A DNA stretch of 64,000 nucleotides from a virus (taxonomy: Duplodnaviria > Heunggongvirae > Uroviricota > Caudoviricetes): positions 1 through 64,000 of the IMG/VR virus record IMGVR_UViG_3300031784_000011, one strand, 5' to 3'. Positions 4,269 to 39,906 of this stretch are shown here, piece by piece (the stretch's first letter is position 1; each line of letters starts with the position of its first letter). The position numbers and the translations under genes are program-made. The notes beneath the pieces were generated by a model that searched no databases, was not told the DNA's origin, and was given only the letters and a program-made list of their open reading frames with translations.

Positions 4269-5378
4269 TTATTTTATGTTTAGTAAATATTTTTTAAATA
4301 ATTCGTGCTCAACTGACACGCAGATTCTAGAATATGATGACCATAAGTCCTTATCGTGATAAACAAACTTATCAAGACCAACAGCACCGATTCTATGTTG
4401 AAATAAGTAATCTTCCGATTTATTTATAACCGCGAAGATACCTAATGGTTGACCACCTTGGTAAATTTCTTCAACCAGTAGGTTTTTCTCTTTTAGGTAA
4501 TTTACATTCTTAAAGATATTATTAGTTGTTATATTTTTAAATTGTTCTAATGAACTTCTTCCTTCGGGTGTGGTTAAAACTTTCTCAATAATCATTTGAG
4601 ATGGGGAACATACGGCATTGAATTCATAAAGTAAACGAATGTTTAATTCTGAATTAAAATCCTTGTCCTTACAAAAAATGAAACCCATTCTTAAACCCGA
4701 TAAACCTACCCATTTTGAAAAAGATTCGGTGATAATAACATTATCAAGATGGGCAACTTTATCAAAGAAATCATCTTCATAAAATAACTTACGGTATGGT
4801 GAATCAAATATTATAATCGCACCTGTCATCGATATCTCATAAATCTTTCTGAAAAGAATGTTGTCATCTATTTTTACACCTGTAGGATTATTTGGGTCAC
4901 AAATAAAAATACAAGATGATTCACTAAAATTGGATGCTTCTAAAGATTCTAATGATTCATAAAATGAAAAAGACTTTTGTCTAATTGTTGCCATTTTAGA
5001 ATAAGAACCCCAATAAAATTTTGGGAAATAAATATTTTCTACATTTAATAATTGGATAACCAAATCTAACGCAGGCATACCACCTGGTGTGATTGCAATA
5101 TTATTGATGAAATTAGGTGAATTTGCAAATGAAGGAAAATATTCTGAAACGATAGAATGTCTAAATGTTTCAATACCCAAGTTAGGTGCATATACTTGAA
5201 ACTCTTTTGAGTTAAAATCAATTTGTTTCATAACTCCCGTCAAATCGATTTCCGTAACAGCGTTTACACCTCTATTTAATTCGAGATATGAATTACCTGA
5301 TTCTTTTGCCGCCCTTTTAACTTTCTGACCAATCCCTACTATCGAAGAGAAGGTTGCATTCGATATATTTACTTTCAT
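4269..5378 (-). CDS. class I/II PLP-dependent aminotransferase
   Basis: CDPNNPTG (NPTG motif) and ESFSKWVGLSGLRMGF (PLP-lysine SxSK...GxRxG) are diagnostic of fold-type I aminotransferases. Confidence 0.75.
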   Translation of the reverse strand: MKVNISNATFSSIVGIGQKVKRAAKESGNSYLELNRGVNAVTEIDLTGVMKQIDFNSKEFQVYAPNLGIETFRHSIVSEYFPSFANSPNFINNIAITPGGMPALDLVIQLLNVENIYFPKFYWGSYSKMATIRQKSFSFYESLESLEASNFSESSCIFICDPNNPTGVKIDDNILFRKIYEISMTGAIIIFDSPYRKLFYEDDFFDKVAHLDNVIITESFSKWVGLSGLRMGFIFCKDKDFNSELNIRLLYEFNAVCSPSQMIIEKVLTTPEGRSSLEQFKNITTNNIFKNVNYLKEKNLLVEEIYQGGQPLGIFAVINKSEDYLFQHRIGAVGLDKFVYHDKDLWSSYSRICVSVEHELFKKYLLNIK

Positions 5379-5450: not shown

Positions 5451-5478
5451 AAAAAAAAATCCCCTTTCGGGGATTAAA
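5451..5478 (-). terminator. intrinsic terminator
   Basis: Hairpin atcccc-tttc-ggggat at 5459-5474, followed on the minus strand by a 9-nt T-run (A-run 5451-5459 on plus). It lies directly downstream of gene 5479..5835. Confidence 0.6.
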
Positions 5479-5835
5479 TTAATATGGATTTTCAAATGTC
5501 AACGAGTCTAAGGACTCATCTATTTTGGAATTATACCACCCATTTATCCAACATTTTGTGGTATCACCAATTTTGGCGGGTTTATTGGTTAGTATTGTGA
5601 CACCATTTTCAAATGTTATATGATATTGATTTTGGAATATTTCTTCACAGGATACTACCGGTACAGGATACCACTCTTTTTCGCTCCTTGGTATAACTTC
5701 CTCACTTATTTCTTCCTCAACTATATTTTCATCTGTAATATAGTTATGTATCTTTTCTTTATTAAAATGAAGAATACCAGTGAAAATTATGACCGTTATA
5801 AACGCCAAAAGAATCCTGACTTGTTTTATATCCAT
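5479..5835 (-). CDS. membrane-anchored hypothetical protein
   Basis: N-terminal hydrophobic segment ILLAFITVIIFTGIL. Confidence 0.45.
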   Translation of the reverse strand: MDIKQVRILLAFITVIIFTGILHFNKEKIHNYITDENIVEEEISEEVIPRSEKEWYPVPVVSCEEIFQNQYHITFENGVTILTNKPAKIGDTTKCWINGWYNSKIDESLDSLTFENPY

Positions 5836-5837: not shown

Positions 5838-6404
5838 TTAAAATTTTTCTTTTAATTTTTCAGTTTGAATTATGTCTTTCAATAATTTAACATACCCTTC
5901 ACCCGCTTCGGCGTAGGTATTTGATAAATACAAATAGTATTCATTTTCAGTATTAATCTGACCAAGGTATCGGCATTGGTAAAACGCATAATCATAAACA
6001 GATTGGTACCAGTTATCATAAAACGCGTGACCGTTTTGAGTTCCTTTGGCGGTGTTGATTCTAACTGTCGCCTGTTTCATACCAAACAGATTATTATTTT
6101 CCTTGAAAACTTGACTTTTGTAATGTCCCGTCTCAGCAATGGCTTGAGCCATAACAATATGTGGAAATTTAACGTTTAATCTTTTTAGTTCTGATACAAA
6201 CTTATCCTCTGAAAATTTATTTTTTTCTTTTTCTAATGAAATTACGATTAATTCTTTTTCGTAACTGTCCAAACTTTTAAACCGTATAAAACGACCTAAA
6301 ATAAATGAAGAGATTACCAAAACAATTACAACCGACAACGCGATTTTTACTTTTTTCCAATCCTTTTTCCAAAGGAGTAGAGAGTTATCATATTTGTAAA
6401 ACAT
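5838..6404 (-). CDS. GH73 glucosaminidase-domain peptidoglycan hydrolase with N-terminal signal-anchor (endolysin candidate)
   Basis: MAQAIAETGHYKS...NNLFGMK matches the mannosyl-glycoprotein endo-beta-N-acetylglucosaminidase (FlgJ-type) core. There is one N-terminal TM segment. Confidence 0.6.
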   Translation of the reverse strand: MFYKYDNSLLLWKKDWKKVKIALSVVIVLVISSFILGRFIRFKSLDSYEKELIVISLEKEKNKFSEDKFVSELKRLNVKFPHIVMAQAIAETGHYKSQVFKENNNLFGMKQATVRINTAKGTQNGHAFYDNWYQSVYDYAFYQCRYLGQINTENEYYLYLSNTYAEAGEGYVKLLKDIIQTEKLKEKF

Positions 6405-6445: not shown

Positions 6446-6826
6446 TTAACTTTTCGTAAAATGGTCCACGACCATTCTTGCACTTGAGTAGTTTGTAGCT
6501 AATGCCACTTCGTGCACATCACAAACCCTCATTAACATTTGTACATCAGGTTCGTGCGGGTGTTTATCCAATGGGTCCCTAAAAAATATAACCGCATCGA
6601 TTTCTTTTCTCGAGACCATTGCAGCAATTTCCGCGTCTCCACCCATTGGTCCTGAATTGACTTGTTCAACCTTTGTAACACCAGCAAACATTATTCTTTT
6701 ACCTGTCGTACCCGTTGCAACAATATCAACATCGGTTCGATTAAAAAAATCTAATCGTTTCATTACAAAGGCAACCATGTCCGCCTTCTTACCGTCGTGT
6801 GCTATGAGTGCTATTTTCATAATCAA
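6446..6826 (-). CDS. mgsA: methylglyoxal synthase
   Basis: IALIAHDGKK...ATGTTG...SGPMGGD...IFFRDPL...PHEPD aligns along its full length to MgsA, including the catalytic His/Asp region. Confidence 0.85.
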   Translation of the reverse strand: MIMKIALIAHDGKKADMVAFVMKRLDFFNRTDVDIVATGTTGKRIMFAGVTKVEQVNSGPMGGDAEIAAMVSRKEIDAVIFFRDPLDKHPHEPDVQMLMRVCDVHEVALATNYSSARMVVDHFTKS

Positions 6827-7290
6827 AAAATAAACAACCTACCCCCAATCATAAACTGAGGTTTATCGGTTTGATAAAAACTTAAAGTTAAGTACAAGGG
6901 ATATGATAATTTCAAATTTGCAGCGGTCTTCAATATAATTTGATTACCACCATCAACAGATAAACCCGCCCCACCTGTTAAAATTAACCATTTATAATCT
7001 TTATTTGTGTAAACGTAATTTAAAACAACATAAATTTCTTCAGGTCTACCATTGATTGTTAAAGTATTGGGGTTAAATAAATTTAATTCGGCCATCAATT
7101 TACCATAACCAATTCCAATAAAGGCATTTGTTTTTTCTTTGGAGAATTCGTAACCCGCGGAATAATATGATGAATTACCTCTAGGACCATAAGATAATCC
7201 ATAATTGAATATTCTTTGGGGTACTCTTAACCCTTGTGCCCATGTGTTGTTCATCAACAGCATACAAAATATCATTAAGAATTTTTTCAT
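6823..7290 (-). CDS. secreted outer-membrane beta-barrel-like protein
   Basis: Signal peptide MKKFLMIFCMLLMNNTWAQ. Alternating hydrophobic beta-strand pattern. C-terminal ...GGRLFIF ends in an aromatic residue, which is the OMP sorting signature. Confidence 0.45.
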   Translation of the reverse strand: MKKFLMIFCMLLMNNTWAQGLRVPQRIFNYGLSYGPRGNSSYYSAGYEFSKEKTNAFIGIGYGKLMAELNLFNPNTLTINGRPEEIYVVLNYVYTNKDYKWLILTGGAGLSVDGGNQIILKTAANLKLSYPLYLTLSFYQTDKPQFMIGGRLFIF

Positions 7291-7307: not shown

Positions 7308-7338
7308 CAAATATATTACTAGTATTTGAGATATCCAA
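7308..7338 (-). promoter_or_regulatory. host sigma-A-type promoter candidate (TTG-N20-TATATTTG)
   Basis: Minus-strand TTG at 7336-7338, a 20-nt spacer, TATATTTG at 7308-7315, 17 nt before the ATG of 6823..7290. Confidence 0.5.
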
Positions 7339-7348
7339 ATTTTTTTTC

Positions 7349-7375
7349 AAAAAAAAGAGGGACCGAAATCCCTCC
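7349..7375 (-). terminator. intrinsic terminator
   Basis: Hairpin gaggga-ccgaaa-tccctc at 7356-7374, with a T-run on the minus strand (A-run 7349-7355 on plus). Downstream of gene 7400..8440. Confidence 0.55.
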
Positions 7376-7399
7376 TTACAAATTTAGATTTGATTGTAA

Positions 7400-8440
7400 T
7401 TAAATTCTCCTCAAGGTGGCATTTTCATTGTCATAGGTTCCTCGTAAGATTTCTCTCGGTCCTTCCGACATCATTCCACTTGTCTCGTACGCCCTTTCTT
7501 CCACAACCGCTTCAACATCACGTTCAACTACCCATTCTCTCTCTTCTCTTATATCCACATTTCTCATATCCATATCAGCTTCACCCATTGGGGATTCCAT
7601 ATCCGTTGGTTCTGGTAGTACCTCCATTTTGGTAAACTCTTTCAGTAACACATCCTCTTTGATTCTATCTTCTTCAGTCAACAAAGAGTTGTTGGTTACT
7701 GGGTTTTCACTAACTTCATTTTTAATGACACCCAATATAAAATCAGGTAAACCACTTTCTAATGAATCGATACGAGAATCAATTTGATTCCAAAAAGAAA
7801 ATTCAGGGTCTGAGTCGAGTGATTTAAAGCAACCAACTTTTAATCCTGTTAATTTATTAATCACATAAATAAGGATACCTCTTTTGGAGTATCTTAGGAA
7901 ATAATCCGGGTTATTCTCAGACGACGTACACCATTTTGTTGATGACCCATATTTCTTTGAGGCGTAAAACGTTAAAGGTCTTAAAACAATCCACTCATCT
8001 GAAGTGAACAATGTGTGAATTTGTTTTTCCAAATCTTTCTCGAAAGCTTTAATCTCAGCGAGACTAGTCGCCGTCATTACATCGTCAAAAGATTTAAATT
8101 TAGATAAGTCATTATCTTGAATCAATCCTCTTTCATTGTAATCACAAAATTTTTGGAATGTTTTTAAATCTGAAAAATTAAAACTCTGTTCCAAAAATCT
8201 GTAAGAGCTAAAAATTTGAAATGGGGTCATTCCTTTAAAGTGGTCATCTGTAATTCCAAATTCTCTTTTTAGATTCTCACGAACTTCATTGACGTACATG
8301 TCTAAATGTTTCGTGTTTTTTGAAAGTCGAATTAAAAATTCGATGTACTTAGATTTACCCTCAGGGCAAAAGATTTGAAAGACATCAACCATATTTATGT
8401 TGTTGTCAGGATTTTGTTTTAGTTCTTTGATTCGTGACAT
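7400..8440 (-). CDS. hypothetical protein
   Basis: 346-aa ORF with an acidic C-terminal region. Confidence 0.5.
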   Translation of the reverse strand: MSRIKELKQNPDNNINMVDVFQIFCPEGKSKYIEFLIRLSKNTKHLDMYVNEVRENLKREFGITDDHFKGMTPFQIFSSYRFLEQSFNFSDLKTFQKFCDYNERGLIQDNDLSKFKSFDDVMTATSLAEIKAFEKDLEKQIHTLFTSDEWIVLRPLTFYASKKYGSSTKWCTSSENNPDYFLRYSKRGILIYVINKLTGLKVGCFKSLDSDPEFSFWNQIDSRIDSLESGLPDFILGVIKNEVSENPVTNNSLLTEEDRIKEDVLLKEFTKMEVLPEPTDMESPMGEADMDMRNVDIREEREWVVERDVEAVVEERAYETSGMMSEGPREILRGTYDNENATLRRI

Positions 8441-8459
8441 ATTGTTTTAATTTAGTTTA

Positions 8460-9128
8460 TTAATAAAATTTACGTAACATTTGAACCACGTCCCAAGCGT
8501 CCTCAAGAGCGGTGTGAGCGACTTCTCCGTCAATTCCAGCACGTTCTTTACATTTTTTAAGACTTGGAATTGCGTTATCCTCATCCCATATACAATACAA
8601 AACGGAAGGGTCAATAATTCTTTGTCTGATTTTTATGAGTTTTTTCCACCACGGTAATTCTTCCAAGAACAATTTATCAAAGGTTCCAAAATTTTTACCG
8701 GCAACATTAATTGTAAGTGATGGTGTGTGATTGTTAAAAGCCGGTATCATTGTTCCATTGACATTTCTAACATGATTATTTAGAAATGATGAATTTGGGT
8801 AGATACCATTTAAGAATAAAAAGTCATAGAATTTTTGTGCCAGTTCATTTTCTTCCAAAAATACATAATCACTATGATGTTCCAAGTTTGCCCTATCCTC
8901 TTCGTTACCTTCTTTATATTCACCAATTAATGATATGATTTCTTTGTTCATGGAAATCGCTCTCGGTGAACCGGTAATTTGGTTTTGAAGTACGATGGCG
9001 TTAAACTTTGGTAATTTCTCGTATGGTAATTTATTAGTGGTGTCTTCTATGATAGCACCAAAAGACAACACACTATTGTTTAACGGTTCGAGACCTGAAG
9101 TCTCAATGTCTATTGATACATATATCAT
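8460..9128 (-). CDS. DEDDh-family 3'-5' exonuclease
   Basis: N-terminal YVSIDIETSG (Exo I motif) and C-terminal HTALEDAWD (Exo III, YxxxD/H) are typical of DnaQ-like exonucleases. Confidence 0.7.
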   Translation of the reverse strand: MIYVSIDIETSGLEPLNNSVLSFGAIIEDTTNKLPYEKLPKFNAIVLQNQITGSPRAISMNKEIISLIGEYKEGNEEDRANLEHHSDYVFLEENELAQKFYDFLFLNGIYPNSSFLNNHVRNVNGTMIPAFNNHTPSLTINVAGKNFGTFDKLFLEELPWWKKLIKIRQRIIDPSVLYCIWDEDNAIPSLKKCKERAGIDGEVAHTALEDAWDVVQMLRKFY

Positions 9129-9316
9129 CGGTCAAGTGCTTTTACAACTACAACAATCATGATGACAATAAAGATGAGGGCAAACCCACCCCATAGTGGT
9201 GCGGTCACCCACCACCACGACCAATCAATAACACCAGTAAGTTTAAGTGTCATAAAAATTAAAAACATCAGACCGAAGAATCCCACTCCTCCTGATGACG
9301 AACTATTTTCTGCCAT
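9125..9316 (-). CDS. small two-TM membrane protein (holin-like topology)
   Basis: 63 aa with two hydrophobic helices, a WSWWW stretch and a charged C-terminus KALDR. Confidence 0.35.
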   Translation of the reverse strand: MAENSSSSGGVGFFGLMFLIFMTLKLTGVIDWSWWWVTAPLWGGFALIFIVIMIVVVVKALDR

Positions 9317-9795
9317 TAGTGTAAATTATATTTTTCTTTTAATATTTTGATTGTTTCTTCCGCGGAAGTATGAAGAATACCTTCACCACCGTTTTCATTC
9401 CAACCGTCTATAGTATCTTTCCTATCGTCGATTAATATTGTGTATGGAGCCGCGAAATCTTTTTTATGTTTAGCACTTCTTAATATTAAAGCAACACCGG
9501 GTAACTCCCTGTTTACCCATTCCATTTTCCCAATACGGGATTCAACTTGTCTTGATGGTGCAGATAAAAGGGTTGGATTATACTTGGAAATGTGTTCCCA
9601 CAAAATGTGACCGTCAGGTTCAATCCATTTCAAATTGACCCAAAAATCATATCCCGCCTTTTCTATTGGTGCCCAAAATTGTGAGTCGTTACGATGTTCG
9701 TCTTTGTTCAAATCAATACCAGTAAGGTCTTTATAACCTTGGTTGAAATCTATTAAGACCCCATCTAAATCACAAAAAATAGTATACTTTGTCAT
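9316..9795 (-). CDS. 5'(3')-deoxyribonucleotidase-like HAD phosphatase
   Basis: N-terminal IFCDLDGVLIDF (HAD motif I, DxDGV) and overall NT5C-like length. Confidence 0.65.
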   Translation of the reverse strand: MTKYTIFCDLDGVLIDFNQGYKDLTGIDLNKDEHRNDSQFWAPIEKAGYDFWVNLKWIEPDGHILWEHISKYNPTLLSAPSRQVESRIGKMEWVNRELPGVALILRSAKHKKDFAAPYTILIDDRKDTIDGWNENGGEGILHTSAEETIKILKEKYNLH

Positions 9796-9859
9796 TTGAA
9801 ATACTTCTATGACAAGTATAAGAATAAATTTTTAAAATAAAAAATTTTAAAGAGTAATT

Positions 9860-10198
9860 TTAATAATCATCATTGTCAGAATCCTCAACAAAATCATTGT
9901 AGTAGGTGTCTTCCTCTTCTTCTGTGAGTTCTTCCCCCTCGAATTCATCTATCTCCAATTCAGCGTACAAGGCCTCGTAGACCATATCTTCTGTTAACCA
10001 AGTTGGTAATTCATCAACTTCGTTGTTTGGTTCATATGATTTAATATCAACCTCATTGTTATCCATAAATAAATTATCATCTTCATCTGAATCATCTTTA
10101 TTTATGTATTCATAGGTTACGAATAATTCAAATTCCTCGTCAGTGTCTGGATGAAAAACAGTAATTACTCGAGTATTTAATCCTTTTTTGTTTGCCAT
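9860..10198 (-). CDS. highly acidic protein
   Basis: 112 aa, very rich in D/E (EEEEDTYYNDFVEDSDNDDY). Confidence 0.5.
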   Translation of the reverse strand: MANKKGLNTRVITVFHPDTDEEFELFVTYEYINKDDSDEDDNLFMDNNEVDIKSYEPNNEVDELPTWLTEDMVYEALYAELEIDEFEGEELTEEEEDTYYNDFVEDSDNDDY

Positions 10199-10224
10199 TT
10201 TAATTATGAAATATTTATTATTAT

Positions 10225-10725
10225 ATGTTTAAGTATATATCTGAAATATTATCAAAATTCACACAGAGACAAAGAATTGTTGCTCTGTCAATTTTGTTAT
10301 TTTCAATTATAATTATCTCGGTTGGACCCAAAATCACTGAGTCTTTAACATATAATGACGAAGAACTGAAATTAAGGATAGAATCCCAAAACAATCAGAT
10401 TGTACAACTAAACAATAGAATTGATGAGTTAAACAACCAAGTAATAGAAAATCAAAGAGAGTGTACCAATGAAATGGTTAAAAGGGAAAATGAGATATTA
10501 ACTATTATAAGTGATATTGAAAACTATACCAATAAAATGAAAAACGAGACAAGAGTAGTAAACTCAATGTCTCGTAAAACCTATAATATTAATGATGATA
10601 GTTCCGTAAGAGTGATGGCGATGCTTCCTGAATCATCTAACACCACCACTATTATTAATAATAAAAGGGATGAGAAATTAATTGGGATGATAAGGAACTT
10701 GAAGAAAAAAGTTAAGGACCAATAA
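10225..10725 (+). CDS. membrane-anchored coiled-coil protein
   Basis: N-terminal TM helix (ALSILLFSIIIISV) followed by heptad-like coiled-coil sequence. One of only two isolated plus-strand genes in the left arm. Confidence 0.5.
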   Translation: MFKYISEILSKFTQRQRIVALSILLFSIIIISVGPKITESLTYNDEELKLRIESQNNQIVQLNNRIDELNNQVIENQRECTNEMVKRENEILTIISDIENYTNKMKNETRVVNSMSRKTYNINDDSSVRVMAMLPESSNTTTIINNKRDEKLIGMIRNLKKKVKDQ

Positions 10726-10726
10726 T

Positions 10727-10960
10727 TTACTTGGTTGCAATTATTTCACCGGTTTCAACATCAGTTACGTATATTTTTCCATCGTCACCTTTACCAATAG
10801 CCACAGTTCTTTTTAATTCTTGTTCATCTTCGTACTCCTGAGCACCTGGTAATTCCTCGGGCTGTGCTTGAGTATCGAAATCATCAAACTCAGCTTCGTT
10901 GATTGTTCTTTTTACAATATTTTCTAAATCTTTGATTGATAATTTAACTACTTTTTTCAT
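10727..10960 (-). CDS. small acidic hypothetical protein
   Basis: 77-aa acidic ORF. Confidence 0.45.
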   Translation of the reverse strand: MKKVVKLSIKDLENIVKRTINEAEFDDFDTQAQPEELPGAQEYEDEQELKRTVAIGKGDDGKIYVTDVETGEIIATK

Positions 10961-10989
10961 TTTTTCTTTTATCTATAAATATCGTATGT

Positions 10990-11023
10990 AAACAAAAAAC
11001 CCCTCTTTCGAGGGGTTCTTTTT
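10990..11023 (-). terminator. intrinsic terminator (hairpin also usable on plus strand)
   Basis: cccctc-tttc-gagggg hairpin at 11000-11015, flanked by an A-run (10994-10999) and ttcttttt (11016-11023). Downstream of 11022..11873. Confidence 0.6.
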
Positions 11024-11873
11024 ATTTAATACCTATCATCGTATTATTTTTGTCACCTAACATGGTTTCGGGTAACTTCCCATTCCATTTATTAATCCAT
11101 TCAAGTTGTAGGAGTAAAGGTGTAATTGTTTGTTGTTTCATCCGATTGGCTTCGGATTCCGCTTTAGCCGCGGTCAACATTGCTTGAGCATTACCATTGG
11201 CGGTTGCAATTTTAATCTTGGCTTGAGCTTCCGCAGTTTTTACCTCATTTTCCGCCCTTAACGCTGCTTGGACCGCATTGTTCTTGGCTTCAATGGACTT
11301 CTTAAATGTCTCAGGGTAAATCAAATTTGAGGTGAATTGGTTTATCACAAACCCTTCTTTTAAAAGTTGACTTTCCAATAGTTTACGAACCTCAACTTCA
11401 AACACCGCCCTATTCGAGATTAGTTCATCAGCAGTGTACTTATTTGTTGCTAAACGAAACGCGTCATATACTGCGGTCTTTAAAAATCCCTCCTCAATTT
11501 CAGGTAATGACCTACGATACTTTGAAAATATTGTGGGTACTTTTTCTCTTTGAACCGAATAGTTCATAATTGGGGATACTTGAAACTCAGAACCGTCTTT
11601 TGAGTTTACAACAAATGAATTATCAGATTCCTCAGTTTTCTTATACTCTTTGTGTTGAATATAGGTTGGGAATTCATAAATCTTTGTTGTGAAGGGGTTG
11701 TAGAATACCATACCTGTACATTCGGTGACATCATCAACACCCTTTCCATCACCATATAGATTTACTTTTACACCGACGTGACCGGCGTCAATTCTCTCAC
11801 AAGAGAAAAACAATAAGGTTAGGATAATGAATCCTAAAATTCCGAAAATTAATCGTTTCAAAAATGGTTCCAT
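11022..11873 (-). CDS. SPFH/band-7 (stomatin/prohibitin-like) membrane protein
   Basis: N-terminal TM. SPFH core. C-terminal Ala/Gln-rich coiled coil AEAQAKIKIATANGNAQAMLTAAKAESEA. Confidence 0.7.
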   Translation of the reverse strand: MEPFLKRLIFGILGFIILTLLFFSCERIDAGHVGVKVNLYGDGKGVDDVTECTGMVFYNPFTTKIYEFPTYIQHKEYKKTEESDNSFVVNSKDGSEFQVSPIMNYSVQREKVPTIFSKYRRSLPEIEEGFLKTAVYDAFRLATNKYTADELISNRAVFEVEVRKLLESQLLKEGFVINQFTSNLIYPETFKKSIEAKNNAVQAALRAENEVKTAEAQAKIKIATANGNAQAMLTAAKAESEANRMKQQTITPLLLQLEWINKWNGKLPETMLGDKNNTMIGIK

Positions 11874-11876
11874 AAT

Positions 11877-12221
11877 TTATTTAGTTTGTTTTTTAATTTT
11901 AATTGTTGTTTTAGATTTTCTTTCTTTTTTGGTAACTTTCTTTGGATTATAATCCAATTCCGTCTCAGGTGTTTTATTTGGGTCCGGTGTGAAGAGTTCA
12001 AAAGGTTCATCATTAAAGTACATAAACCTAATATAAAAAACCGCAAACATTGCCGTACCCACCGAAAAAATCGCTGAGATTATGTTGATTATCGTATTTG
12101 CAACGGTTAATCCAGGAAAGATTAAAAATTGATAAGAAATTCCAATGAAGAAAAATACCAAAAAGGTAATCGTTGTTTTGGATTTTATAATATTGGTGAA
12201 GATTTTGTTTAACATGTTCAT
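11877..12221 (-). CDS. membrane protein with basic C-terminal tail
   Basis: Two to three TM helices, then a K-rich tail. Overlaps and is co-oriented with the SPFH gene. Confidence 0.5.
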   Translation of the reverse strand: MNMLNKIFTNIIKSKTTITFLVFFFIGISYQFLIFPGLTVANTIINIISAIFSVGTAMFAVFYIRFMYFNDEPFELFTPDPNKTPETELDYNPKKVTKKERKSKTTIKIKKQTK

Positions 12222-12259
12222 TAATTAAATTATATGAAATATTTTTTAAAGTAAAAAAT

Positions 12260-12931
12260 TTAACCTACAACATTTTTCATGTCGTCATTGTGATGGTCTA
12301 TATCCCCCAATTCAGAACCAATCGGAACCTTCAACATTGGATTTAAAACCTCATGTACAAAGTCATATGGTCTGAACTCAGGGTGTCCATCCATACCAAC
12401 ATCCATTCTTCTCCCACCACTAACTTTTAAGTGGTTAGGTAAATGACAGTGTCCGTGTAAATGGATTCTACCCTTTCTCAGATTGTTCCACGAACTGATA
12501 GGATAATGTAACATCTCGAATGAATGCCCTTGGTATTCAAGTCTATTGTAATGACTTACACTGGTAAATAAACTCTGACAATTCTCACGGTTTCTTTCAA
12601 TGTGATGGTCATGGTTACCCAATAGGATGTGAATCTCTTGACAAACGATTCTATGTCTGAATTCCGCTATATTATCAAACCCACCGAATGACCAATCACC
12701 CAAGTGAATCAAAACATCATCCTGTCCAACAACCTCATTGATGTTGTTTACAATCGCGGCGTTCATCTTATCAAGAGTTGCGAAGTCTCTCGTTTGATTA
12801 ACGGGAATACTACCGTCAGGCATTCTCCAATTAGTAATTCCTCTACATATATTAGTATGTGAGTAATGCGTGTCAGACGTTATCCAAACTTTTCTATTGT
12901 TATCTATTCTTAACATATTAACTAAAATCAA
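12260..12931 (-). CDS. calcineurin-like metallophosphoesterase
   Basis: Motifs DTHYSH, GDWSFGG, GNHDHH, HGHCH are the MPP-superfamily metal ligands. Confidence 0.65.
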   Translation of the reverse strand: MILVNMLRIDNNRKVWITSDTHYSHTNICRGITNWRMPDGSIPVNQTRDFATLDKMNAAIVNNINEVVGQDDVLIHLGDWSFGGFDNIAEFRHRIVCQEIHILLGNHDHHIERNRENCQSLFTSVSHYNRLEYQGHSFEMLHYPISSWNNLRKGRIHLHGHCHLPNHLKVSGGRRMDVGMDGHPEFRPYDFVHEVLNPMLKVPIGSELGDIDHHNDDMKNVVG

Positions 12932-13424
12932 CTGATGTACTCACACGAAGTCCATCGATTATTAAATCATCATATTTTTCGTTGTCCATCCAAAACATTC
13001 CGTGGCCTTTCGACCTTTGGTCTCTCCTGTATTCTTCATTTACAACCCAACCATCTGGTTGACCCCACTCAAGAGCCATGGTGATAAACTCTTCAACATT
13101 CCATTCTTCACCATATTCATCCACAATTCTTCCTGAACGAATAAATGAAAGTAGTTCTTCTTTATTTGAATAATGTTTATTATTATGAAAATTCCAACAA
13201 AACTTCCACCCACCACTTCTTTTACCTAAATGAATTGATGTACCATCTCTGAATATGTCCCAAGGGCTAACTATCTCCCAAGATTCTTTAAATGGGTCAA
13301 TAAAGGGAAATCCACGTTCAATATCACTAGGTGACATTGTCATCTTTTCTATATCTCTTTGGAGACGTGATTTACGTGACTCCATTTCCTCTGCGGTCGG
13401 TATACGATAATAATTTGTACCCAT
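12918..13424 (-). CDS. hypothetical protein (start moved to first in-frame ATG)
   Basis: The ORF track begins at a TTG (13443-13445). The first ATG (13422-13424) is preceded by an exact TTG-N20-TATATTTG element. Confidence 0.5.
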   Translation of the reverse strand: MGTNYYRIPTAEEMESRKSRLQRDIEKMTMSPSDIERGFPFIDPFKESWEIVSPWDIFRDGTSIHLGKRSGGWKFCWNFHNNKHYSNKEELLSFIRSGRIVDEYGEEWNVEEFITMALEWGQPDGWVVNEEYRRDQRSKGHGMFWMDNEKYDDLIIDGLRVSTSVDFS

Positions 13425-13442
13425 TTTAAAATTAATATGGGC

Positions 13443-13473
13443 CAAATATATGAAATAATTTTGGATATACCAA
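13443..13473 (-). promoter_or_regulatory. host sigma-A-type promoter candidate (TTG-N20-TATATTTG)
   Basis: Minus-strand TTG at 13471-13473, a 20-nt spacer, TATATTTG at 13443-13450. Confidence 0.5.
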
Positions 13474-13480
13474 AATATTG

Positions 13481-13510
13481 CAAAAAAAAATCCCGATTTC
13501 TCGGGATTTA
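13481..13510 (-). terminator. intrinsic terminator
   Basis: Hairpin atcccga-tttc-tcgggat at 13490-13507, with a 9-nt T-run on minus (A-run 13482-13490). Downstream of 13524..14717. Confidence 0.6.
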
Positions 13511-13523
13511 ATTTGGTTTTAAT

Positions 13524-14717
13524 TTATTTGACCACTTTTTGAACTATTCGACTCACCAATTTATTTTTTATTGATTCGTTAAGTTCATTTTGGTTTGGAC
13601 CCCCAACTTGGTATCTTTTTACTGTTGCGCTTTTAAGATTGTCTTTTGGATTTAATGATAAAATCTGTGTTTTTAAATCATTAATAACTTCCATTAACGC
13701 ATCCACAACTTGTTTATCGTTCATTACCGTATAATTATCATTGAATGTTGTTCCAGGTCTAAGTTGTGCGGTTGCAGATGATTGAATTAATTTATCATCG
13801 AGAAACCCACCTTTTAATCCACTTTCGCTTTCAAGTTTTTTACCTAACTTGGTTTGAGCTCTAGCGGTCCACGCAAAACTATTTTCACCAATTAATTCTC
13901 CTTTAAGTTCAAAATCCATTCTAACTGTAACGTCTATGTTTTTTTCCTCAAGACCATATGCGTCTAACATATATTTTGGTGTTTTACCAGCATATTGTTT
14001 CAACATTTTTTTGTCTGCTCTCCAGTTATTGTAATTTTTATTGTACTGACGAGCCATATAAAATGTTTTCATTTCATCAGTATCTTTACCCTGAACTCGA
14101 GCCACTGCCGATAATAAAAAATCCCTTACTGTTGGGTAAGCATTATAGTTATGTGTTGAGTATTCAATTAATTGATTTGTAAATTTACCATATTGGTCGA
14201 CATTCTTTCTATCTCTAGCAACCACAGCAGGAATACTTCTTTTGTTAAGTTCTTGAACAAACGATTCGTCTTCAAAAGTATTTGCAATGATTGTGAATAG
14301 TCTTCTCTTAATTGTTTCTTGTTCTTTATATGTGTCACCTGTGGGTTTATATCCACCCTCAACATATTTTTCAATAGGTCTATGGTACTTTCCTCTCTTA
14401 CAAGCGGCTAATTGTGGTTCTAAATTGTGGAGTTCTTTGATTTTTTCTAAGAATTCTTTGTTTGCATTTTTAAACGCTTCAAGTTCCTGACAATCTAATG
14501 GTACCACTAATATCTCACCACCCTCTTGTAAGGTGGGGTTTGCAATCCAATAATCAGGGATATCTGTGTCATTATCTTCTTTGAAGAAAGGTTTATATTT
14601 TACTAGTTTACCTTTGTCATCCCTGACACCCTTTTGTTTGTATGCCATTTCCTCCACATCAGAGATATAAGATTCAGAAATGATACGTCTTAAATATTTT
14701 TCGGTTAATTTATCCAT
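13524..14717 (-). CDS. hypothetical protein
   Basis: 397-aa ORF. Confidence 0.5.
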   Translation of the reverse strand: MDKLTEKYLRRIISESYISDVEEMAYKQKGVRDDKGKLVKYKPFFKEDNDTDIPDYWIANPTLQEGGEILVVPLDCQELEAFKNANKEFLEKIKELHNLEPQLAACKRGKYHRPIEKYVEGGYKPTGDTYKEQETIKRRLFTIIANTFEDESFVQELNKRSIPAVVARDRKNVDQYGKFTNQLIEYSTHNYNAYPTVRDFLLSAVARVQGKDTDEMKTFYMARQYNKNYNNWRADKKMLKQYAGKTPKYMLDAYGLEEKNIDVTVRMDFELKGELIGENSFAWTARAQTKLGKKLESESGLKGGFLDDKLIQSSATAQLRPGTTFNDNYTVMNDKQVVDALMEVINDLKTQILSLNPKDNLKSATVKRYQVGGPNQNELNESIKNKLVSRIVQKVVK

Positions 14718-14760
14718 AGAAATAATTCTTTACATATAAATACAACCAAAAACAGAATTG

Positions 14761-14985
14761 TTAATACTTATCGGACAATCTTCTGACTTTTTCACCCAAT
14801 TCCATATCGTTTGGTGTATCCCTAATTAAATCAATTGGAACACATAAGTTTTTAGTCTCATCGGAACGATTACATTTCTCACACAATTGACCTAATCCCT
14901 CAACGTAACCGTATCTCAAATCAATATGAGTTTCAAATTCATATGGTGTCTCAACACCACAAATTACACAGGTATCTTTTGCCAT
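14761..14985 (-). CDS. small zinc-ribbon protein
   Basis: CVICG...CEKCN CxxC pairs. Confidence 0.45.
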   Translation of the reverse strand: MAKDTCVICGVETPYEFETHIDLRYGYVEGLGQLCEKCNRSDETKNLCVPIDLIRDTPNDMELGEKVRRLSDKY

Positions 14986-15040
14986 AACTTTTTGTTTTAT
15001 GAAAAGATATGAAAGAAAAAGAAAAAGTAAAATTAATTTT

Positions 15041-16369
15041 TTACGCTAAAGATTTGATTTTTGGACTGGCACCTCTTTCGTAACCATCTACAACTTTGGC
15101 AACCAAAGTACCAGTACCCCAAGTCTTAAGTGATTCACACTTAGCAATTTCCGCAGCACCAATATCATTTACCAAACCATCAACAATACAAGTATAAAGA
15201 CCATTTCTCAATGTTTTGATGGTTGCTTTCATACCGTCTTCTAAAGATTTGTAATTTTTAACACCAACACTATTTGCGTTAGTGGAACCCGGTAAATCCC
15301 ATGTGGTATTAAATGGATTATATTTTCCACCCGAACCTTCTGACTGTCTCCAAGCGTATAAGAATTTTAAGTTTTCCTCACTTTCGGGTGCACCTAAATT
15401 TTCAAGTAGTTTTTTATAAAAATTGATGTCCGTTAAACCGTCAACATTGATTTGTGAATTTTTAGCCGCTTGGTCAAGGTATTGTTTTAACTCTTCGGAT
15501 TTAACACCTTTAGCTTTTAATAATTCCAATAACTTATTTAACATTTCAGGTGTGGCATTTTCAGAAGTACCACTACTAGAAGATGATTTACCACCATATT
15601 GTAAATGAAAATGACCACCAGTTGCGGCTTTGGTTGGATTGGTGTATTCATCTATGTATGAAAAATTACCATCACTACTTTTTGTTGAGTTGAGTAATTT
15701 TATAAAATCGGAAGCGTTTTTTGAATTATATGGATTTAAAACCAAATCAATTGCATTTCCTTTGGTGTGTTGACTTACGTAATTTAAATTATGGTGGAAT
15801 TTATCGTTACCTGCGGTTATGGTAACCTCAACATCAGGATTACTTTGACTGTACTTGTCAAGAATTTGACTAACAATATCTGTGAGTTTGTCATTAATAG
15901 AACCACCACTGGTTAACTCATTACCTTTTTCGGTGTAACCTAAATCATCTAATTTATCTCTTAATGAATCGGCACTTTCTTTGATTACAGAATTATCTGA
16001 TTTGAATTTTCTAACAGCACTTGCGGTTTCAGGACCAAATAAACCATCAACACCAAATTTAGGTAACTCATAACCCAAGAGTATTAAACCAATTTGCATA
16101 GTTTCGACACCTTTTTGATATTCCATAGAACCTCTTGGTTGTTCTGATAACCCACCCTGAGCTGCGGTATCTTCTAATGTCTTATAAAATTCTGCAACGT
16201 CAGGTGAAACTAAGTCCGCCTTTTTGGGGTCGTCTATTTTTTTTTCGTCTTTTTTACCTAACCCAATTTTACCCAATAAATCATCGATAAAATTTTCATT
16301 TACCATTGATTTACCGTAGGTAATTTCATGGATTCGTTGTAATTCTTCTTGTAGTGTGGGTTTTTTCAT
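15041..16369 (-). CDS. cell-wall hydrolase: peptidoglycan-binding domain plus M15-type (VanY/L-Ala-D-Glu peptidase-like) zinc peptidase
   Basis: GVDGLFGPETASAVRKFK is a PG_binding_1 motif. SQHTKGNAIDL and GGHFHLQ match the H...D / HxH zinc ligands of peptidase M15. Confidence 0.55.
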   Translation of the reverse strand: MKKPTLQEELQRIHEITYGKSMVNENFIDDLLGKIGLGKKDEKKIDDPKKADLVSPDVAEFYKTLEDTAAQGGLSEQPRGSMEYQKGVETMQIGLILLGYELPKFGVDGLFGPETASAVRKFKSDNSVIKESADSLRDKLDDLGYTEKGNELTSGGSINDKLTDIVSQILDKYSQSNPDVEVTITAGNDKFHHNLNYVSQHTKGNAIDLVLNPYNSKNASDFIKLLNSTKSSDGNFSYIDEYTNPTKAATGGHFHLQYGGKSSSSSGTSENATPEMLNKLLELLKAKGVKSEELKQYLDQAAKNSQINVDGLTDINFYKKLLENLGAPESEENLKFLYAWRQSEGSGGKYNPFNTTWDLPGSTNANSVGVKNYKSLEDGMKATIKTLRNGLYTCIVDGLVNDIGAAEIAKCESLKTWGTGTLVAKVVDGYERGASPKIKSLA

Positions 16370-16420
16370 TAAAACAATTCTATACTTAAATAAATATCCC
16401 TACGTTTAGAAACGGTGTAA

Positions 16421-16993
16421 TTAAGTAAGGTAATCGATAATCTTTTGTTTTATACCAGATTGTTTGATACCTAAAGTAGATGATGGAGTTAATACAAAAT
16501 TATCTAAACCCCAATCTTTCCAGTCCTCTCCATTTTTACCCATATCCAAATCATCAACAGAAACCCAATGAGTAACTTCAGGGTGGTCGTGTAAAAATTG
16601 TTTAATCTCGATAACGCGAGTCATCTCCAAATCCCATCTCGGTGACCAAACCCATACTTTATCATTATACCAATTACACTGACCTAAATTAGGTGTGAGA
16701 GCGATTGGTTTTTTAGAGATACCTTTTGATTCGTAGTATTCACCCATTTCTTCGAGATTTGCCCACCTCTTCCAATCAGATGACGTTACAATTTCCGCAC
16801 CTGTTTTTTCGATGATTTGGTTTAATACCTTAACCGCTTTTTGATTGAAATTATCAAATCGGTATTCTAGTGGCATTTCTGATGTTGTCATAGATAATTT
16901 ACGACCACCCCATTTTTCTTGTTTCTTGAATCGACCACCCCATTCTGACGACAAACAAATTACACCGTCGTGGTCTAAAAATATAACTTTCAT
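16421..16993 (-). CDS. HAD-like hydrolase
   Basis: N-terminal VIFLDHDGVI (DxDG motif I). Confidence 0.45.
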   Translation of the reverse strand: MKVIFLDHDGVICLSSEWGGRFKKQEKWGGRKLSMTTSEMPLEYRFDNFNQKAVKVLNQIIEKTGAEIVTSSDWKRWANLEEMGEYYESKGISKKPIALTPNLGQCNWYNDKVWVWSPRWDLEMTRVIEIKQFLHDHPEVTHWVSVDDLDMGKNGEDWKDWGLDNFVLTPSSTLGIKQSGIKQKIIDYLT

Positions 16994-17676
16994 TTATTGA
17001 ATCTTTTAAATATTTTAATAAAGTCTGACGAATATTTTTCATAGACAGAATCTTTCCATTCATGATGTTTACCTGTTGACATGTATGCTTGAATCTCGTC
17101 ATCAATAATCGTTTTGTCGTCAGAATATCCACCTTTAATTAAAACTTTTTTCAAATGTTCATAATCTCTATGATTAATATCTCCAATTAAATAATCGACC
17201 TCAACTTTGTATTGTGGGTTTGTATAATAAAATCCGTGAGCTATTTCATGATTCATTACACCACTTTTTACTTTATCAGCGCCGATAAGATACCAAGAAT
17301 GTTGTTCACCACGATTCTTTATTCTACACTCTCTTTCACAGTATTCAATAATTTCATACATAGTATAATCATATTGGGTTCGAGGTAAACCAAACGTATT
17401 TTTTGCCTCTAAAAGAACTTTCGAGGGTATATTATAACCAGTCCAATCGCTTGGATACGTAAAATGAGGTTTTTTATTTGTATCAATGTACAACTTCATG
17501 TATTGTTCTAAAGTGAAAAACTTACCTCTAATCTGTGGGTATGGAGATTCGTAAAATTCTTGGTATCTACAAAACAAGCTAGACCTATCATATTGGTTTT
17601 TAACGATAACAGCAAATATGAAAGGTTTTATTTCTCTCACTTCACCTTCAATTAATGAATTTGAAATACGCATCAT
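16990..17676 (-). CDS. hypothetical protein with HExxH motif (putative zinc metallopeptidase)
   Basis: MNHEIAHGFYY contains HEIAH. Confidence 0.4.
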   Translation of the reverse strand: MMRISNSLIEGEVREIKPFIFAVIVKNQYDRSSLFCRYQEFYESPYPQIRGKFFTLEQYMKLYIDTNKKPHFTYPSDWTGYNIPSKVLLEAKNTFGLPRTQYDYTMYEIIEYCERECRIKNRGEQHSWYLIGADKVKSGVMNHEIAHGFYYTNPQYKVEVDYLIGDINHRDYEHLKKVLIKGGYSDDKTIIDDEIQAYMSTGKHHEWKDSVYEKYSSDFIKIFKRFNK

Positions 17677-17722
17677 TTTAAGATTTTTTAGTAAATATAA
17701 CTATTTTTTTTCAAATTATCAC

Positions 17723-17730
17723 TATATTTG
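17723..17730 (+). promoter_or_regulatory. TATATTTG -7-like element, leaderless
   Basis: Plus-strand TATATTTG, then 4 nt, then the GTG start of 17735..18202. The 17677-17734 region also carries a TATATTTA on the minus strand for 16990..17676 (divergent promoters). Confidence 0.4.
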
Positions 17731-17734
17731 ACTT

Positions 17735-18202
17735 GTGAATATATTCTTTCTTGATAAAGATGTAAAAAAATGTGCCGAATATCATTGCGACAAACACGTT
17801 GTGAAAATGATATTGGAAACTGCACAACTTTTGTGTGGGGCTCATCACATGACCGAACAAGTAACCGGTCAAGTACCGTACAAGTTGTCACATAAAAATC
17901 ACCCGTGTTCAATATGGGTAAGAGAATCCTTGACAAACTATCTAATACTCTGTGAATTGGGTTTAGAACTTTGTAAAGAGTACACTTACCGTTATGGTAA
18001 ACGTCATAAATCTCAAGAAGTTATTGAGTGGTGTGTCACAAATAAATTAAAAATTTGTGACAAAGGTTTGACTACACCACCAAAAGCAATGCCAATAGAG
18101 TATAAAACAGATTGTGTGATTGAATCTTACAGAAACTACTACAGGGGTGCAAAATCAAAATTCACAACATGGAAAAATAGAGATGTACCTCCTTGGTTTT
18201 AG
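17735..18202 (+). CDS. conserved hypothetical protein
   Basis: GTG start in the ORF track. N-terminus NIFFLDKDVKKCAEYHCDKHVVKMILETAQLL looks like a conserved phage family that I cannot name. Confidence 0.45.
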   Translation: MNIFFLDKDVKKCAEYHCDKHVVKMILETAQLLCGAHHMTEQVTGQVPYKLSHKNHPCSIWVRESLTNYLILCELGLELCKEYTYRYGKRHKSQEVIEWCVTNKLKICDKGLTTPPKAMPIEYKTDCVIESYRNYYRGAKSKFTTWKNRDVPPWF

Positions 18203-18345
18203 TAGAAATTTTGTTCGGTATGTTGTTTATTATCGTCCCAAGTATAATCATTATCTGATTCATAATTCTCCTGAATTATTTCATCATTTACAATTGGGTT
18301 ATCTTCTTTAATGACCTGATTATTAATTTCTTTTGGACTTTTCAT
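18199..18345 (-). CDS. small acidic hypothetical protein (start trimmed to internal ATG)
   Basis: Track ORF 18199..18399 overlaps the next gene by 43 nt. The internal ATG at 18343-18345 removes the overlap. Confidence 0.3.
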   Translation of the reverse strand: MKSPKEINNQVIKEDNPIVNDEIIQENYESDNDYTWDDNKQHTEQNFY

Positions 18346-18356
18346 GAAAATAAATA

Positions 18357-18731
18357 TTAAGGTCCGACAAAATATTTTGACCTCCAAAATTGATACCATT
18401 TTCTCTTTTGGATTGGTTTACATTTTGAGAACGGATTGTCCCCAAAATTTACTCTTCCTTGATATCTTGAAGATAAAACATTTAAAAATATTTCATGGTA
18501 TTCAGGTGGTATAGTATTAAAGTCTGCCTTTATTTCAACTCGTAAAGAAACTGGTCCCTCATCGTGTTGAACTACCAAATAATCATTTAGGGTGATTATT
18601 GTTGATTTTCTAATATTAATCCATTCACCACTAATACCAATATCCTGATTGTTTTCATTTGATGGGTCAACAACTATCATCTCTTCTTCTTTTTGTGGTT
18701 CGACTTTTTGTTTTGTCTTATTCTGTCTCAT
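18357..18731 (-). CDS. hypothetical protein (start trimmed)
   Basis: Track ORF 18357..18824 overlaps 18718..18990 by about 107 nt. The internal Met (MRQNKTKQ) gives a 14-nt overlap. Confidence 0.4.
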   Translation of the reverse strand: MRQNKTKQKVEPQKEEEMIVVDPSNENNQDIGISGEWINIRKSTIITLNDYLVVQHDEGPVSLRVEIKADFNTIPPEYHEIFLNVLSSRYQGRVNFGDNPFSKCKPIQKRKWYQFWRSKYFVGP

Positions 18732-18990
18732 TTGATAATATGTGGTCAAATTCTTCGGCAGCTTTTGGGTTTCTTTCATAGAACATATCATACGCCATCG
18801 CGAACCTATTATATTCAGTTTCAAATAAAAATAGATAGGTTTGTAAACTATCCATTTCCTGTTTGGTTCTTGATAGTTCCGTTTTTAATTTATTTTCTCT
18901 ATGTATGGATTTTTGGAGAAGAATACCCATAGAGATGGCAAACAACATGGTGAGTACCAAATAAAATTTGATATCTTGAATGAATTTCAT
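18718..18990 (-). CDS. small membrane protein
   Basis: N-terminal TM FYLVLTMLFAISMGILL, then a coiled-coil tail. Confidence 0.45.
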   Translation of the reverse strand: MKFIQDIKFYLVLTMLFAISMGILLQKSIHRENKLKTELSRTKQEMDSLQTYLFLFETEYNRFAMAYDMFYERNPKAAEEFDHILSNETE

Positions 18991-19002
18991 GGTTAATACA
19001 AT

Positions 19003-19167
19003 TTAAAAGATTTCTTCCGCGATACCGAGTATCTCCGCCACAAAAAATAAAATTGCCGCAGTTTCTAAATTGGTAAAAAATAAGAAATAACAAGCCACGA
19101 TTCTCAAACCTGACTTGGCCAAACTTATATTGAAGTGAGAATTAGATTTTGATTCTTTTGGTTCCAT
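19003..19167 (-). CDS. unannotated 54-aa protein with hydrophobic C-terminus
   Basis: Not in the ORF track (under 60 aa). Translation MEPKESKSNSHFNISLAKSGLRIVACYFLFFTNLETAAILFFVAEILGIAEEIF. Preceded by an exact TTG-N20-TATATTTG, then 20 nt, then ATG. Confidence 0.35.
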   Translation of the reverse strand: MEPKESKSNSHFNISLAKSGLRIVACYFLFFTNLETAAILFFVAEILGIAEEIF

Positions 19168-19187
19168 GATTAAGGGGTTTTACCAAC

Positions 19188-19218
19188 CAAATATAGAAAA
19201 GAAAAATTTGATTTCCAA
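19188..19218 (-). promoter_or_regulatory. host sigma-A-type promoter candidate (TTG-N20-TATATTTG)
   Basis: Minus-strand TTG at 19216-19218, a 20-nt spacer, TATATTTG at 19188-19195. Confidence 0.5.
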
Positions 19219-19231
19219 AAAAATCCTAAAA

Positions 19232-26785: not shown

Positions 26786-27179
26786 TTCTAACCCATTTTC
26801 TATCTGAATTTAATGTAAAAGCACCAATAAAATCGTCACCCCGATTCCAATCTTTTGGTGATAATAATGATAATGTATTTACACCATTAAAATTATATAA
26901 GTAATATGTTTCACCAACAATTGGGTCAAAAGAAATTTTTGATTCCCAAACCATTATTGAATCCACATACTCTCTTTGAAGTTTTTCTATTGATTGAATG
27001 ATTTCTTCTCTTTGACGATTAAAGACATCAATCATTTTTTTTGAGGACTCTTTTTTTACGAGACCCACATTAGGTAATTCAAATTTTGGCGAACCGATAC
27101 TGGTAGGATAATGCTTTCTATTAGCGTCGTACCCATTTGTTTCATCCCAAACAACAATATCAGGTTTCTTTTTATTCAT
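26775..27179 (-). CDS. hypothetical protein
   Basis: 134-aa ORF. Confidence 0.45.
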   Translation of the reverse strand: MNKKKPDIVVWDETNGYDANRKHYPTSIGSPKFELPNVGLVKKESSKKMIDVFNRQREEIIQSIEKLQREYVDSIMVWESKISFDPIVGETYYLYNFNGVNTLSLLSPKDWNRGDDFIGAFTLNSDRKWVRNER

Positions 27180-27331
27180 CCTCCAAACCGTCCATTAAAG
27201 TTACGTCCCAATCTGAAAAATCGTCACCTAATTCCATACCCAATTTCAAATTTTCCAAAAAATTTTTTTCCCATTCCTCATAAGAAAGATTTGAGTTGGG
27301 ATTTTGTTTAATGTAAATTTTATATTGTCTT

Positions 27332-33899: not shown

Positions 33900-33900
33900 A

Positions 33901-39904: not shown

Positions 39905-39906
39905 TA

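Follow-up and report, generated by a model that had tools for sequence, protein, structure and literature searches.

The window analyzed here, a 64,000-nucleotide stretch of DNA (positions 1 to 64,000 of the IMG/VR virus record IMGVR_UViG_3300031784_000011, assigned to the Caudoviricetes), carries a minus-strand gene, mgsA, whose product is, judged by its sequence, a complete short-form methylglyoxal synthase (MgsA, EC 4.2.3.3) with an intact active site. With moderate confidence, we read this protein as a catalytically competent enzyme that serves as an auxiliary metabolic gene (AMG) product of a large phage, probably one infecting a member of the Bacteroidota, and whose benefit to the phage would be the freeing of phosphate. 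The MgsA enzyme and the AMG concept are already known; what is new is how widely mgsA is spread among large uncultured phages, how strongly it is constrained, and that the viral copies belong to a characteristic subfamily.

A single open reading frame (ORF) fills positions 6446 to 6826 on the minus strand, running from a TTG start codon at 6826 to a stop codon at 6446-6448 and encoding 126 amino acids. The ORF listing and its translation bore out the first-pass annotation of this DNA, which had proposed a 126-residue product at 6446-6826 (the strand was not stated there), and all five of the motifs that it quoted were found in the translation (AHDGKKA, ATGTTG, SGPMGGD, FFRDPL, and PHEPD). The TTG at 6826 shares nucleotides with the stop codon of the ORF just upstream (6823-7290), and an ATG lies two codons inside the ORF, at 6820, giving a product of 124 residues with the N-terminus MKIAL. 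Starts of the MKIAL type are the commonest among MgsA homologs, and the identical gene was called by JGI from the same ATG. As this start is shared with most homologs and with the JGI call, 6446-6820 is the likelier coding sequence than 6446-6826. An identical 124-residue gene call is on record for both JGI and ENA contigs. The gene is thus placed at 6446..6820 (minus strand, 124 residues; 126 from the alternative TTG start at 6826) on the evidence of the ORF listing and of profile, PDB, and fold matches.

The mgsA product matched the Pfam MGS family (PF02142, E = 4e-14) and scored 155.3 bits against the NCBIfam equivalog model for methylglyoxal synthase, NF003559, which has a cut-off of 84; the cut-off of TIGR00160 was marginally missed (145.6, cut-off 146.9). 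A sequence search of the PDB matched 11 distinct sequences, every one an MgsA, the best being that of Thermus sp. GH5 (2xw6, E = 3.9e-33, residues 4-120), with Bacillus subtilis 6f2c at 1.8e-32 and Escherichia coli 1b93 at 4.7e-22. The MgsA identity first proposed for the gene is therefore borne out by strong matches in Pfam, in NCBIfam, and among PDB sequences. An AlphaFold2 monomer model of the product (pLDDT 82.8, pTM 0.79) was compared with the PDB by Foldseek, and the top 26 matches were all MgsA, with a TM-score of 0.85 to 1wo8. Next in rank, at only 14-18% identity, came the MGS-like domains of carbamoyl-phosphate synthetase.

For the active site, the E. coli MgsA reference sequence was confirmed to be identical to 1b93 and residue numbering was checked against that structure. 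In the alignment all 13 E. coli positions considered were identical in the phage protein (H19, D20, K23, T45, G46, T47, T48, S65, G66, D71, D91, H98, and D101). In the numbering of the 126-residue product, E. coli D71, H98, H19, D20, D91, and D101 correspond to D64, H91, H10, D11, D84, and D94, and the phosphoryl-binding positions are kept as K14, T38, T40, T41, S58, and G59 (E. coli Lys23, Thr45, Thr47, Thr48, Ser65, and Gly66). The residue roles used here are those of the E. coli structures, in which Asp71 is the catalytic base. The catalytic Asp and His, singled out by the first-pass annotation as the residues to look for, are thus present as the equivalents of D71 and H98, along with 11 other active-site or phosphate-binding residues. 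These active-site residues were also essentially invariant in the alignment of 80/80 viral copies (described below). The C-terminus falls about 25 residues short of the end of E. coli MgsA, placing the protein in the short form and not the long form. From these features, the phage enzyme would be expected to convert dihydroxyacetone phosphate (DHAP) to methylglyoxal and phosphate.

The window itself appears to come from the genome of a large uncultured phage. It has a GC content of 32%, and most of it is taken up by closely spaced ORFs running in one direction, many of which lack a family assignment; no tRNA genes were found in it, and no recognizable housekeeping genes among the ORFs scanned. 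Replication and recombination genes encode a UvrD-type helicase, a DnaQ-like exonuclease, a primase, SbcC/SbcD, an RNase H-like exonuclease, and an AAA ATPase, and there are genes for a sigma-70 factor and for Dam-like and N4/N6 methyltransferases. Further genes encode ThyA, a glutamine-synthetase-like protein, ClpP, glutaredoxin, thioredoxin, and HAD and metallo-phosphatases. Five IMG/VR contigs of 46-310 kb (L001-L005) are syntenic with the mgsA neighborhood. The exact MgsA protein occurs in 110 blocks of the assembly collection, on contigs whose lengths extend into the 0.2-1 Mb range but in no case beyond 1 Mb, and the gene order is the same in two independent assemblies, one from JGI (157 kb) and one from ENA (194 kb). 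Long contigs on record, of 157-310 kb, include JGI 3300021599 Ga0226807_1000004, ENA ERZ27248034 k141_2322868, and IMGVR_UViG_3300042545_001134. Gene content, syntenic contigs, and contig sizes thus agree with the earlier view that the gene is phage-encoded.

The closest isolated phage was Flavobacterium phage vB_FspM_immuto, at a primase identity of just 35%; the window primase is closest to those of immuto and of SPO1/Twort-type phages. Neither a megablast search of INPHARED with 8 kb around mgsA nor a tblastn search of it with two neighboring orphan proteins gave a match. When IMG/VR was queried with the T4-type capsid protein Gp23, the window's own contigs were absent among the at least 600 matches listed. 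A T4-like assignment of the window lineage was not supported by this query and, with no capsid gene within reach, was not retained.

The mgsA gene recurs across uncultured phages and is not a one-off. A pattern scan of IMG/VR found at least 165 stretches encoding MgsA relatives, and the figures on context and identity given here are for the best 80. These are 60-97% identical to the window's protein and comprise 64 distinct proteins, which group into 46 clusters at 95% identity. Outside the five syntenic loci, the genes around mgsA differ from those of the window and from one locus to another, and no conserved neighbor was universal to the viral loci. A gene for the T4-type Gp23 major capsid protein (PF07068, E = 3.6e-73) lay within 10 kb of mgsA at 15 loci from 6 clusters, and within four genes of it at 14 of these 15. 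At other viral loci a family-B DNA polymerase gene adjoins mgsA, and one 78%-identical copy (P0029) lies among small orphan ORFs packed densely on one strand. The commonest neighbor was a ThyA homolog: 14 of the 46 viral clusters have one no more than 10 kb from mgsA, and none of the 80 best cellular loci does, these being drawn from 185,579 species-representative bacterial genomes.

A 4HBT thioesterase gene was found directly downstream of mgsA at nine viral loci from five of the 95%-identity clusters (L003/L004, at 10399-10797, L027, L054, L056, L057, and L059-L061) and at no cellular locus. These thioesterases are 59-68% identical to the one encoded at 27332-27760 of the window, and thyA is often the next gene. 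We speculate that this thioesterase might hydrolyze lactoyl thioesters formed from methylglyoxal. Three further IMG/VR contigs of 150-287 kb (L082, L084, and L085) keep homologs of the window genes at 7400-20635, at 41-72% identity, with those of the genes neighboring mgsA at about 51-72%. No homolog of mgsA, the glucosaminidase, the aminotransferase, or UvrD was found within 10 kb either side of their homolog of ORF 7400-8440, so mgsA behaves as an accessory gene and this part of the window is a variable, accessory region.

Comparison of mgsA with its syntenic relatives gave ratios of nonsynonymous to synonymous divergence (dN/dS) of 0.017-0.12, with synonymous sites near saturation (a proportion of synonymous differences, pS, of 0.56-0.64 in the pairs with estimable dS). 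MgsA identity was 97% to L001, 90% to L002, and 83% to L005, the other ORFs shared with these contigs being 53-90%, 38-83%, and 52-79% identical, respectively; in L003, 2 of 15 neighbors exceeded MgsA in conservation. Within the syntenic block mgsA is therefore more strongly conserved than all or nearly all of the other genes, and this, with its low dN/dS, excludes a passenger gene in decay.

The closest cultured cellular relatives of the protein belong to the Bacteroidota (Algoriphagus and other Cyclobacteriaceae, Odoribacter, and Saprospiraceae), at 58-67% full-length identity, and cellular Bacteroidota MgsA is the likely ancestral pool of the viral copies. Apart from mgsA, the 80 best cellular loci share no gene with the window. 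A signature outside the active site marks the viral subfamily: V21, M22, K23, R24, L25, F28, Y113, and a one-residue loop insertion. Given the co-directional phage-type block, the syntenic viral contigs, the relatives adjacent to Gp23 genes, the Bacteroidota kinship, and the low dN/dS, we read mgsA, from the sequences, as an AMG inside a phage genome, host-derived and kept by selection. As a separate observation, three contigs from metagenome-assembled genomes (MAGs) with a GC content of 62-65% (L087-L089), whose taxonomy labels are mutually inconsistent, encode MgsA proteins that carry the viral-clade signature and are 71-72% identical to the protein of the 32%-GC phage, which suggests that the subfamily has moved across distant lineages.

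mgsA lies in a four-gene unit, all on the minus strand, that encodes an outer-membrane-like protein, MgsA, a membrane-anchored glucosaminidase, and a small membrane protein, and that is bounded by terminator-like hairpins. The upstream boundary is a hairpin with a T-run at 7354..7377 (a 10-pair stem, then TTTTTTGAAAA), which ends the gene at 7400-8440. It is followed by a promoter-like site, TTTG-N20-TATATTTG, at 7308..7339, of the Bacteroidota -33/-7 type and 18 nt upstream of the start of the first ORF. This ORF (6823..7290, 155 residues) has a signal-peptide-like N-terminus, MKKFLMIFCMLLMNNTWAQ, ends in ...GGRLFIF, and stops 2 nt before the mgsA ATG. It had no Pfam match and, though syntenic in L001-L005, is poorly conserved (38-76% identity); from its sequence it looks like a small outer-membrane beta-barrel protein. 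The glucosaminidase ORF (5838..6404, 188 residues), which starts 41 nt past mgsA and is also syntenic in L001-L005, has an N-terminal hydrophobic segment and a peptidoglycan hydrolase domain (PF01832, E = 1.2e-13). The last ORF (5479..5835, 118 residues) likewise has an N-terminal hydrophobic segment and gave no family match, and the downstream boundary is a second terminator-like hairpin with a T-run at 5458..5475 (AATCCCCGAAAGGGGATT, then TTTTTTTATT).

The octamer TATATTTG matches TAnnTTTG, the -7 consensus in Flavobacterium and Bacteroides (PMC7641319), and the window has 12 copies of it. Of these, seven (at 2097, 7308, 13443, 17723, 19188, 22510, and 45725) fall in the 15% of the window that is non-coding, all of them close upstream of co-oriented start codons; the binomial probability of this non-coding placement is about 6e-4. 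The full -33/-7 Bacteroidota promoter pattern showed no overall enrichment in the window (6 found, 4.4 expected), nor did the T4 late-promoter motif TATAAATA (12 found, 11.3 expected). The TATATTTG sites are probably a host-type promoter set of the phage, and the mgsA unit would then be transcribed by a host-type RNA polymerase from a promoter resembling those of Bacteroidota sigma-A. The positional enrichment of the octamer supports both this host-type transcription and a host that was probably a member of the Bacteroidota.

Elsewhere in the window, a 12-kb island at 31666-43775 lies on the plus strand, its strand and GC skew opposite to those of the rest. Its approximately 13 co-directional genes encode family-2 and other glycosyltransferases, two FkbM methyltransferases, a UDP-GlcNAc 2-epimerase, and an NAD-dependent sugar epimerase/dehydratase, and it looks like a phage glycan synthesis or modification cluster. 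A minus-strand module at 24846-29233 encodes a glutamine-synthetase-like protein (374 residues), the 4HBT thioesterase, a DUF2452 protein, an HAD/LNS2 phosphatase, and a ThyA homolog of 441 residues in which a large insertion interrupts the Pfam match. Together with a class I/II aminotransferase at 4269-5378, this module might form a pathway of nucleotide or DNA (hyper)modification and not of plain dTMP synthesis. Glutaredoxin and thioredoxin, a histone-H1-like Hc1 protein (60 residues), a sigma-70-family factor, and ClpP are encoded at 44080-44700, 48600-48800, 54129-54941, and 56227-56901.

That mgsA is not a standard phage auxiliary gene, as the first-pass annotation had supposed, agreed with what was found in databases and in the literature. 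PHROG has no family for MgsA. A tblastn search of INPHARED with MgsA returned 22 records at up to 48% identity, of which two, both 'UNVERIFIED' contigs, were sampled (OR846639.1, L256, and MT835478.1, L257). Both carry cellular genes: one has KsgA and genes for MalK-type and other ABC transporters, and the other has PBP2, MinD, RodA, a D-Ala carboxypeptidase, and an alanine-racemase-type gene. Both records are thus bacterial DNA deposited under phage names and were rejected as evidence for mgsA in isolated phages; the INPHARED search gave no true phage isolate carrying the gene, two of the 22 matching records having been inspected. JGI annotation already labels such genes 'methylglyoxal synthase'. 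In Lake Baikal viromes mgsA was listed among AMGs, on a 120-kb scaffold that recruited up to 8.8% of the reads of one sample (PMC8066274); beyond this one AMG table entry nothing was found on phage MgsA in the literature searched.

In bacteria, MgsA converts DHAP to methylglyoxal and phosphate, a reaction that probably matters when phosphate is scarce or glycolytic flux is high, and phosphate inhibits the enzyme (PMC11850910); the route through methylglyoxal serves glycolysis as an overflow (PMC12096831). During infection, the phage enzyme would convert host DHAP to methylglyoxal and inorganic phosphate, so that the triose-phosphate pool would be made to release phosphate whilst carbon would bypass the phosphate-requiring glyceraldehyde-3-phosphate dehydrogenase (GAPDH) step. 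The most likely benefit, the classical one of this enzyme placed under phage control, would arise while phage nucleotide and DNA synthesis drains phosphate, especially in phosphate-poor waters, and a build-up of sugar phosphates could be relieved during phage DNA synthesis as well. On viral contigs, though not at cellular loci, mgsA is frequently close to thyA and other DNA-precursor genes, which fits such a phosphate-release role, as does the aquatic setting of the published mgsA scaffold.

Several observations weigh against this reading. The phosphate-salvage benefit is itself a step that we infer from the sequence, and among the family-assigned genes of the window and the 10 kb either side none was of a phosphate-acquisition type such as pstS or phoH. 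Over the same interval, precomputed Pfam calls included no glyoxalase, DJ-1, or aldo-keto reductase. A phage without a detoxification gene would rely on its host against the toxic product, which fits a deliberately toxic role equally well. The other genes of the unit encode envelope proteins and no metabolic enzyme. Across the window and 10 kb on each side of it, no gene for a capsid, tail, or terminase protein was seen, so the phage identity of the contig rests on its gene content and its IMG/VR relatives. The GC content of mgsA (40.7%) is the highest of 71 ORFs (mean 32.2%, standard deviation 2.9), with a third-position GC rank of 70/71; this excess persists although the gene is old in the lineage, synonymous sites being saturated between relatives. 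Lastly, the neighbor-joining tree, built from 123 columns with short internal branches and without bootstrap, placed 80/80 viral copies in one cluster with cultured Bacteroidota outside it, and seven MAG contigs nest within this cluster, which is not exclusively viral. Two of the seven were inspected and both are cellular by context: L092 comes from a 648-kb Flavobacteriales contig with type IX secretion system (T9SS) and TonB genes, and L087, at 65% GC, has 2-oxoglutarate dehydrogenase E1/E2 genes upstream of mgsA. An exclusively viral clade was thus rejected, and the subfamily is common to phages and a few uncultured cellular lineages.

Among other explanations, methylglyoxal itself might be the useful product, through host shut-off by a halt to growth and macromolecular synthesis, damage to the DNA and proteins of host or competitor, or a block to superinfection, with phosphate release incidental. 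We regard this as rather unlikely. Methylglyoxal is a strong, toxic electrophile (PMC11850910), yet phage DNA and proteins would suffer from it too. The missing detoxification gene agrees with deliberate toxicity, and one can speculate that the methyltransferases, the inserted ThyA homolog, and the glycosyltransferase island of the window shield phage DNA or virions. The protein also lacks the E. coli-type C-terminal extension, with Arg150 and its part in allosteric phosphate control, but a tail-less short form is normal in Thermus, Bacillus, and Bacteroidota cells and is not a phage-specific deregulation. Between toxicity and a phosphate or flux role, the sequence offers no distinguishing feature. 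A bolder proposal, which we hold to be doubtful, is that a widespread group of large aquatic phages floods the host with the electrophile, either to shut it off or harm competitors or to provoke its potassium-efflux and acidification responses, or else that mgsA and a 4HBT lactoyl-thioester hydrolase form a phosphate-liberating glycolytic bypass.

It is highly improbable that the MgsA fold has taken on a new function, such as phosphate elimination from another phosphorylated substrate, possibly in nucleotide or DNA-modification chemistry. The viral clusters with a ThyA homolog within 10 kb (14/46) or with 4HBT directly downstream (5), set against no cellular locus with either, would suit such a change, as would the viral signature and loop insertion and the TIGR00160 score just under its cut-off. 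However, every E. coli catalytic and phosphate-binding residue is retained, full-length identity to cellular Bacteroidota MgsA is 58-67%, the stricter-scoring NF003559 model was passed by a wide margin, and the viral signature recurs in MAG copies with ordinary cellular contexts. Least credible of all, and in our view nearly negligible, is that mgsA is not truly phage-borne or is functionless, through a chimeric assembly, a provirus flank, or recent arrival as a passenger. IMG/VR and INPHARED do contain host DNA, as the two cellular 'UNVERIFIED' records illustrate, and the GC outlier and the absence of a nearby structural gene point the same way. Against this, the same gene stands in the same order in independent JGI and ENA assemblies, within a co-directional phage block and 2 nt after the preceding ORF; synteny is kept in relatives with saturated synonymous sites and dN/dS of 0.02-0.12; copies on other contigs lie a few genes from Gp23 capsid genes; and cellular loci have no other gene in common with the window.

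The product of MgsA is toxic and the enzyme is tightly regulated by bacteria, so intact, constrained copies in dozens of unrelated phage contexts imply that making methylglyoxal or freeing phosphate from DHAP is of advantage during infection. If phosphate salvage is the true role, it would be a new and purely intracellular route among phage strategies for phosphorus-limited waters; if toxicity is, mgsA would represent a new mechanism of host control; and if flooding with the electrophile or the thioesterase bypass is, a new type of phage metabolic takeover. The 8.8% read recruitment by the mgsA scaffold (PMC8066274) means that the gene may matter for lake carbon and phosphorus flow.

The closest structural counterparts of the phage protein are the short-form MgsA enzymes of Thermus thermophilus and Thermus sp. 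GH5 (1wo8, 2x8w, and 2xw6) and of B. subtilis (6f2c), which are of the same length class (about 124-137 residues), share its fold (TM-score 0.82-0.85) at 49-55% identity, and have identical HD..K, ATGTTG, SGPxGGD, DPL, and PHxxD motifs. Unlike them, it is phage-encoded and carries the surface signature and loop insertion of its clade. E. coli MgsA (1b93 and 1egh), the biochemical reference, is 39% identical, with a TM-score of 0.82 on query length and the 13 catalytic and phosphate-binding positions shared, but has a C-terminal extension of about 25 residues that the phage protein is without. In E. coli, this tail contributes Arg150 and takes part in the allosteric inhibition by phosphate. Because the extension is lacking, regulation of the phage MgsA may differ from that of the E. 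coli enzyme. The enzymes of cultured Bacteroidota, for all their identity to the phage protein, fall outside the cluster of viral copies, are without the viral-clade signature, and have neighborhoods sharing nothing with the window.

Known phage AMGs for phosphate and central carbon metabolism include pstS, phoH, talC, and cp12 of cyanophages. Like these, the phage mgsA is host-derived, under purifying selection, and carried by large phages of lytic type, scattered among nucleotide-metabolism genes, and its plausible benefit is likewise a supply of phosphate and carbon for DNA synthesis. It differs from them in its reaction and in the toxicity of its product.

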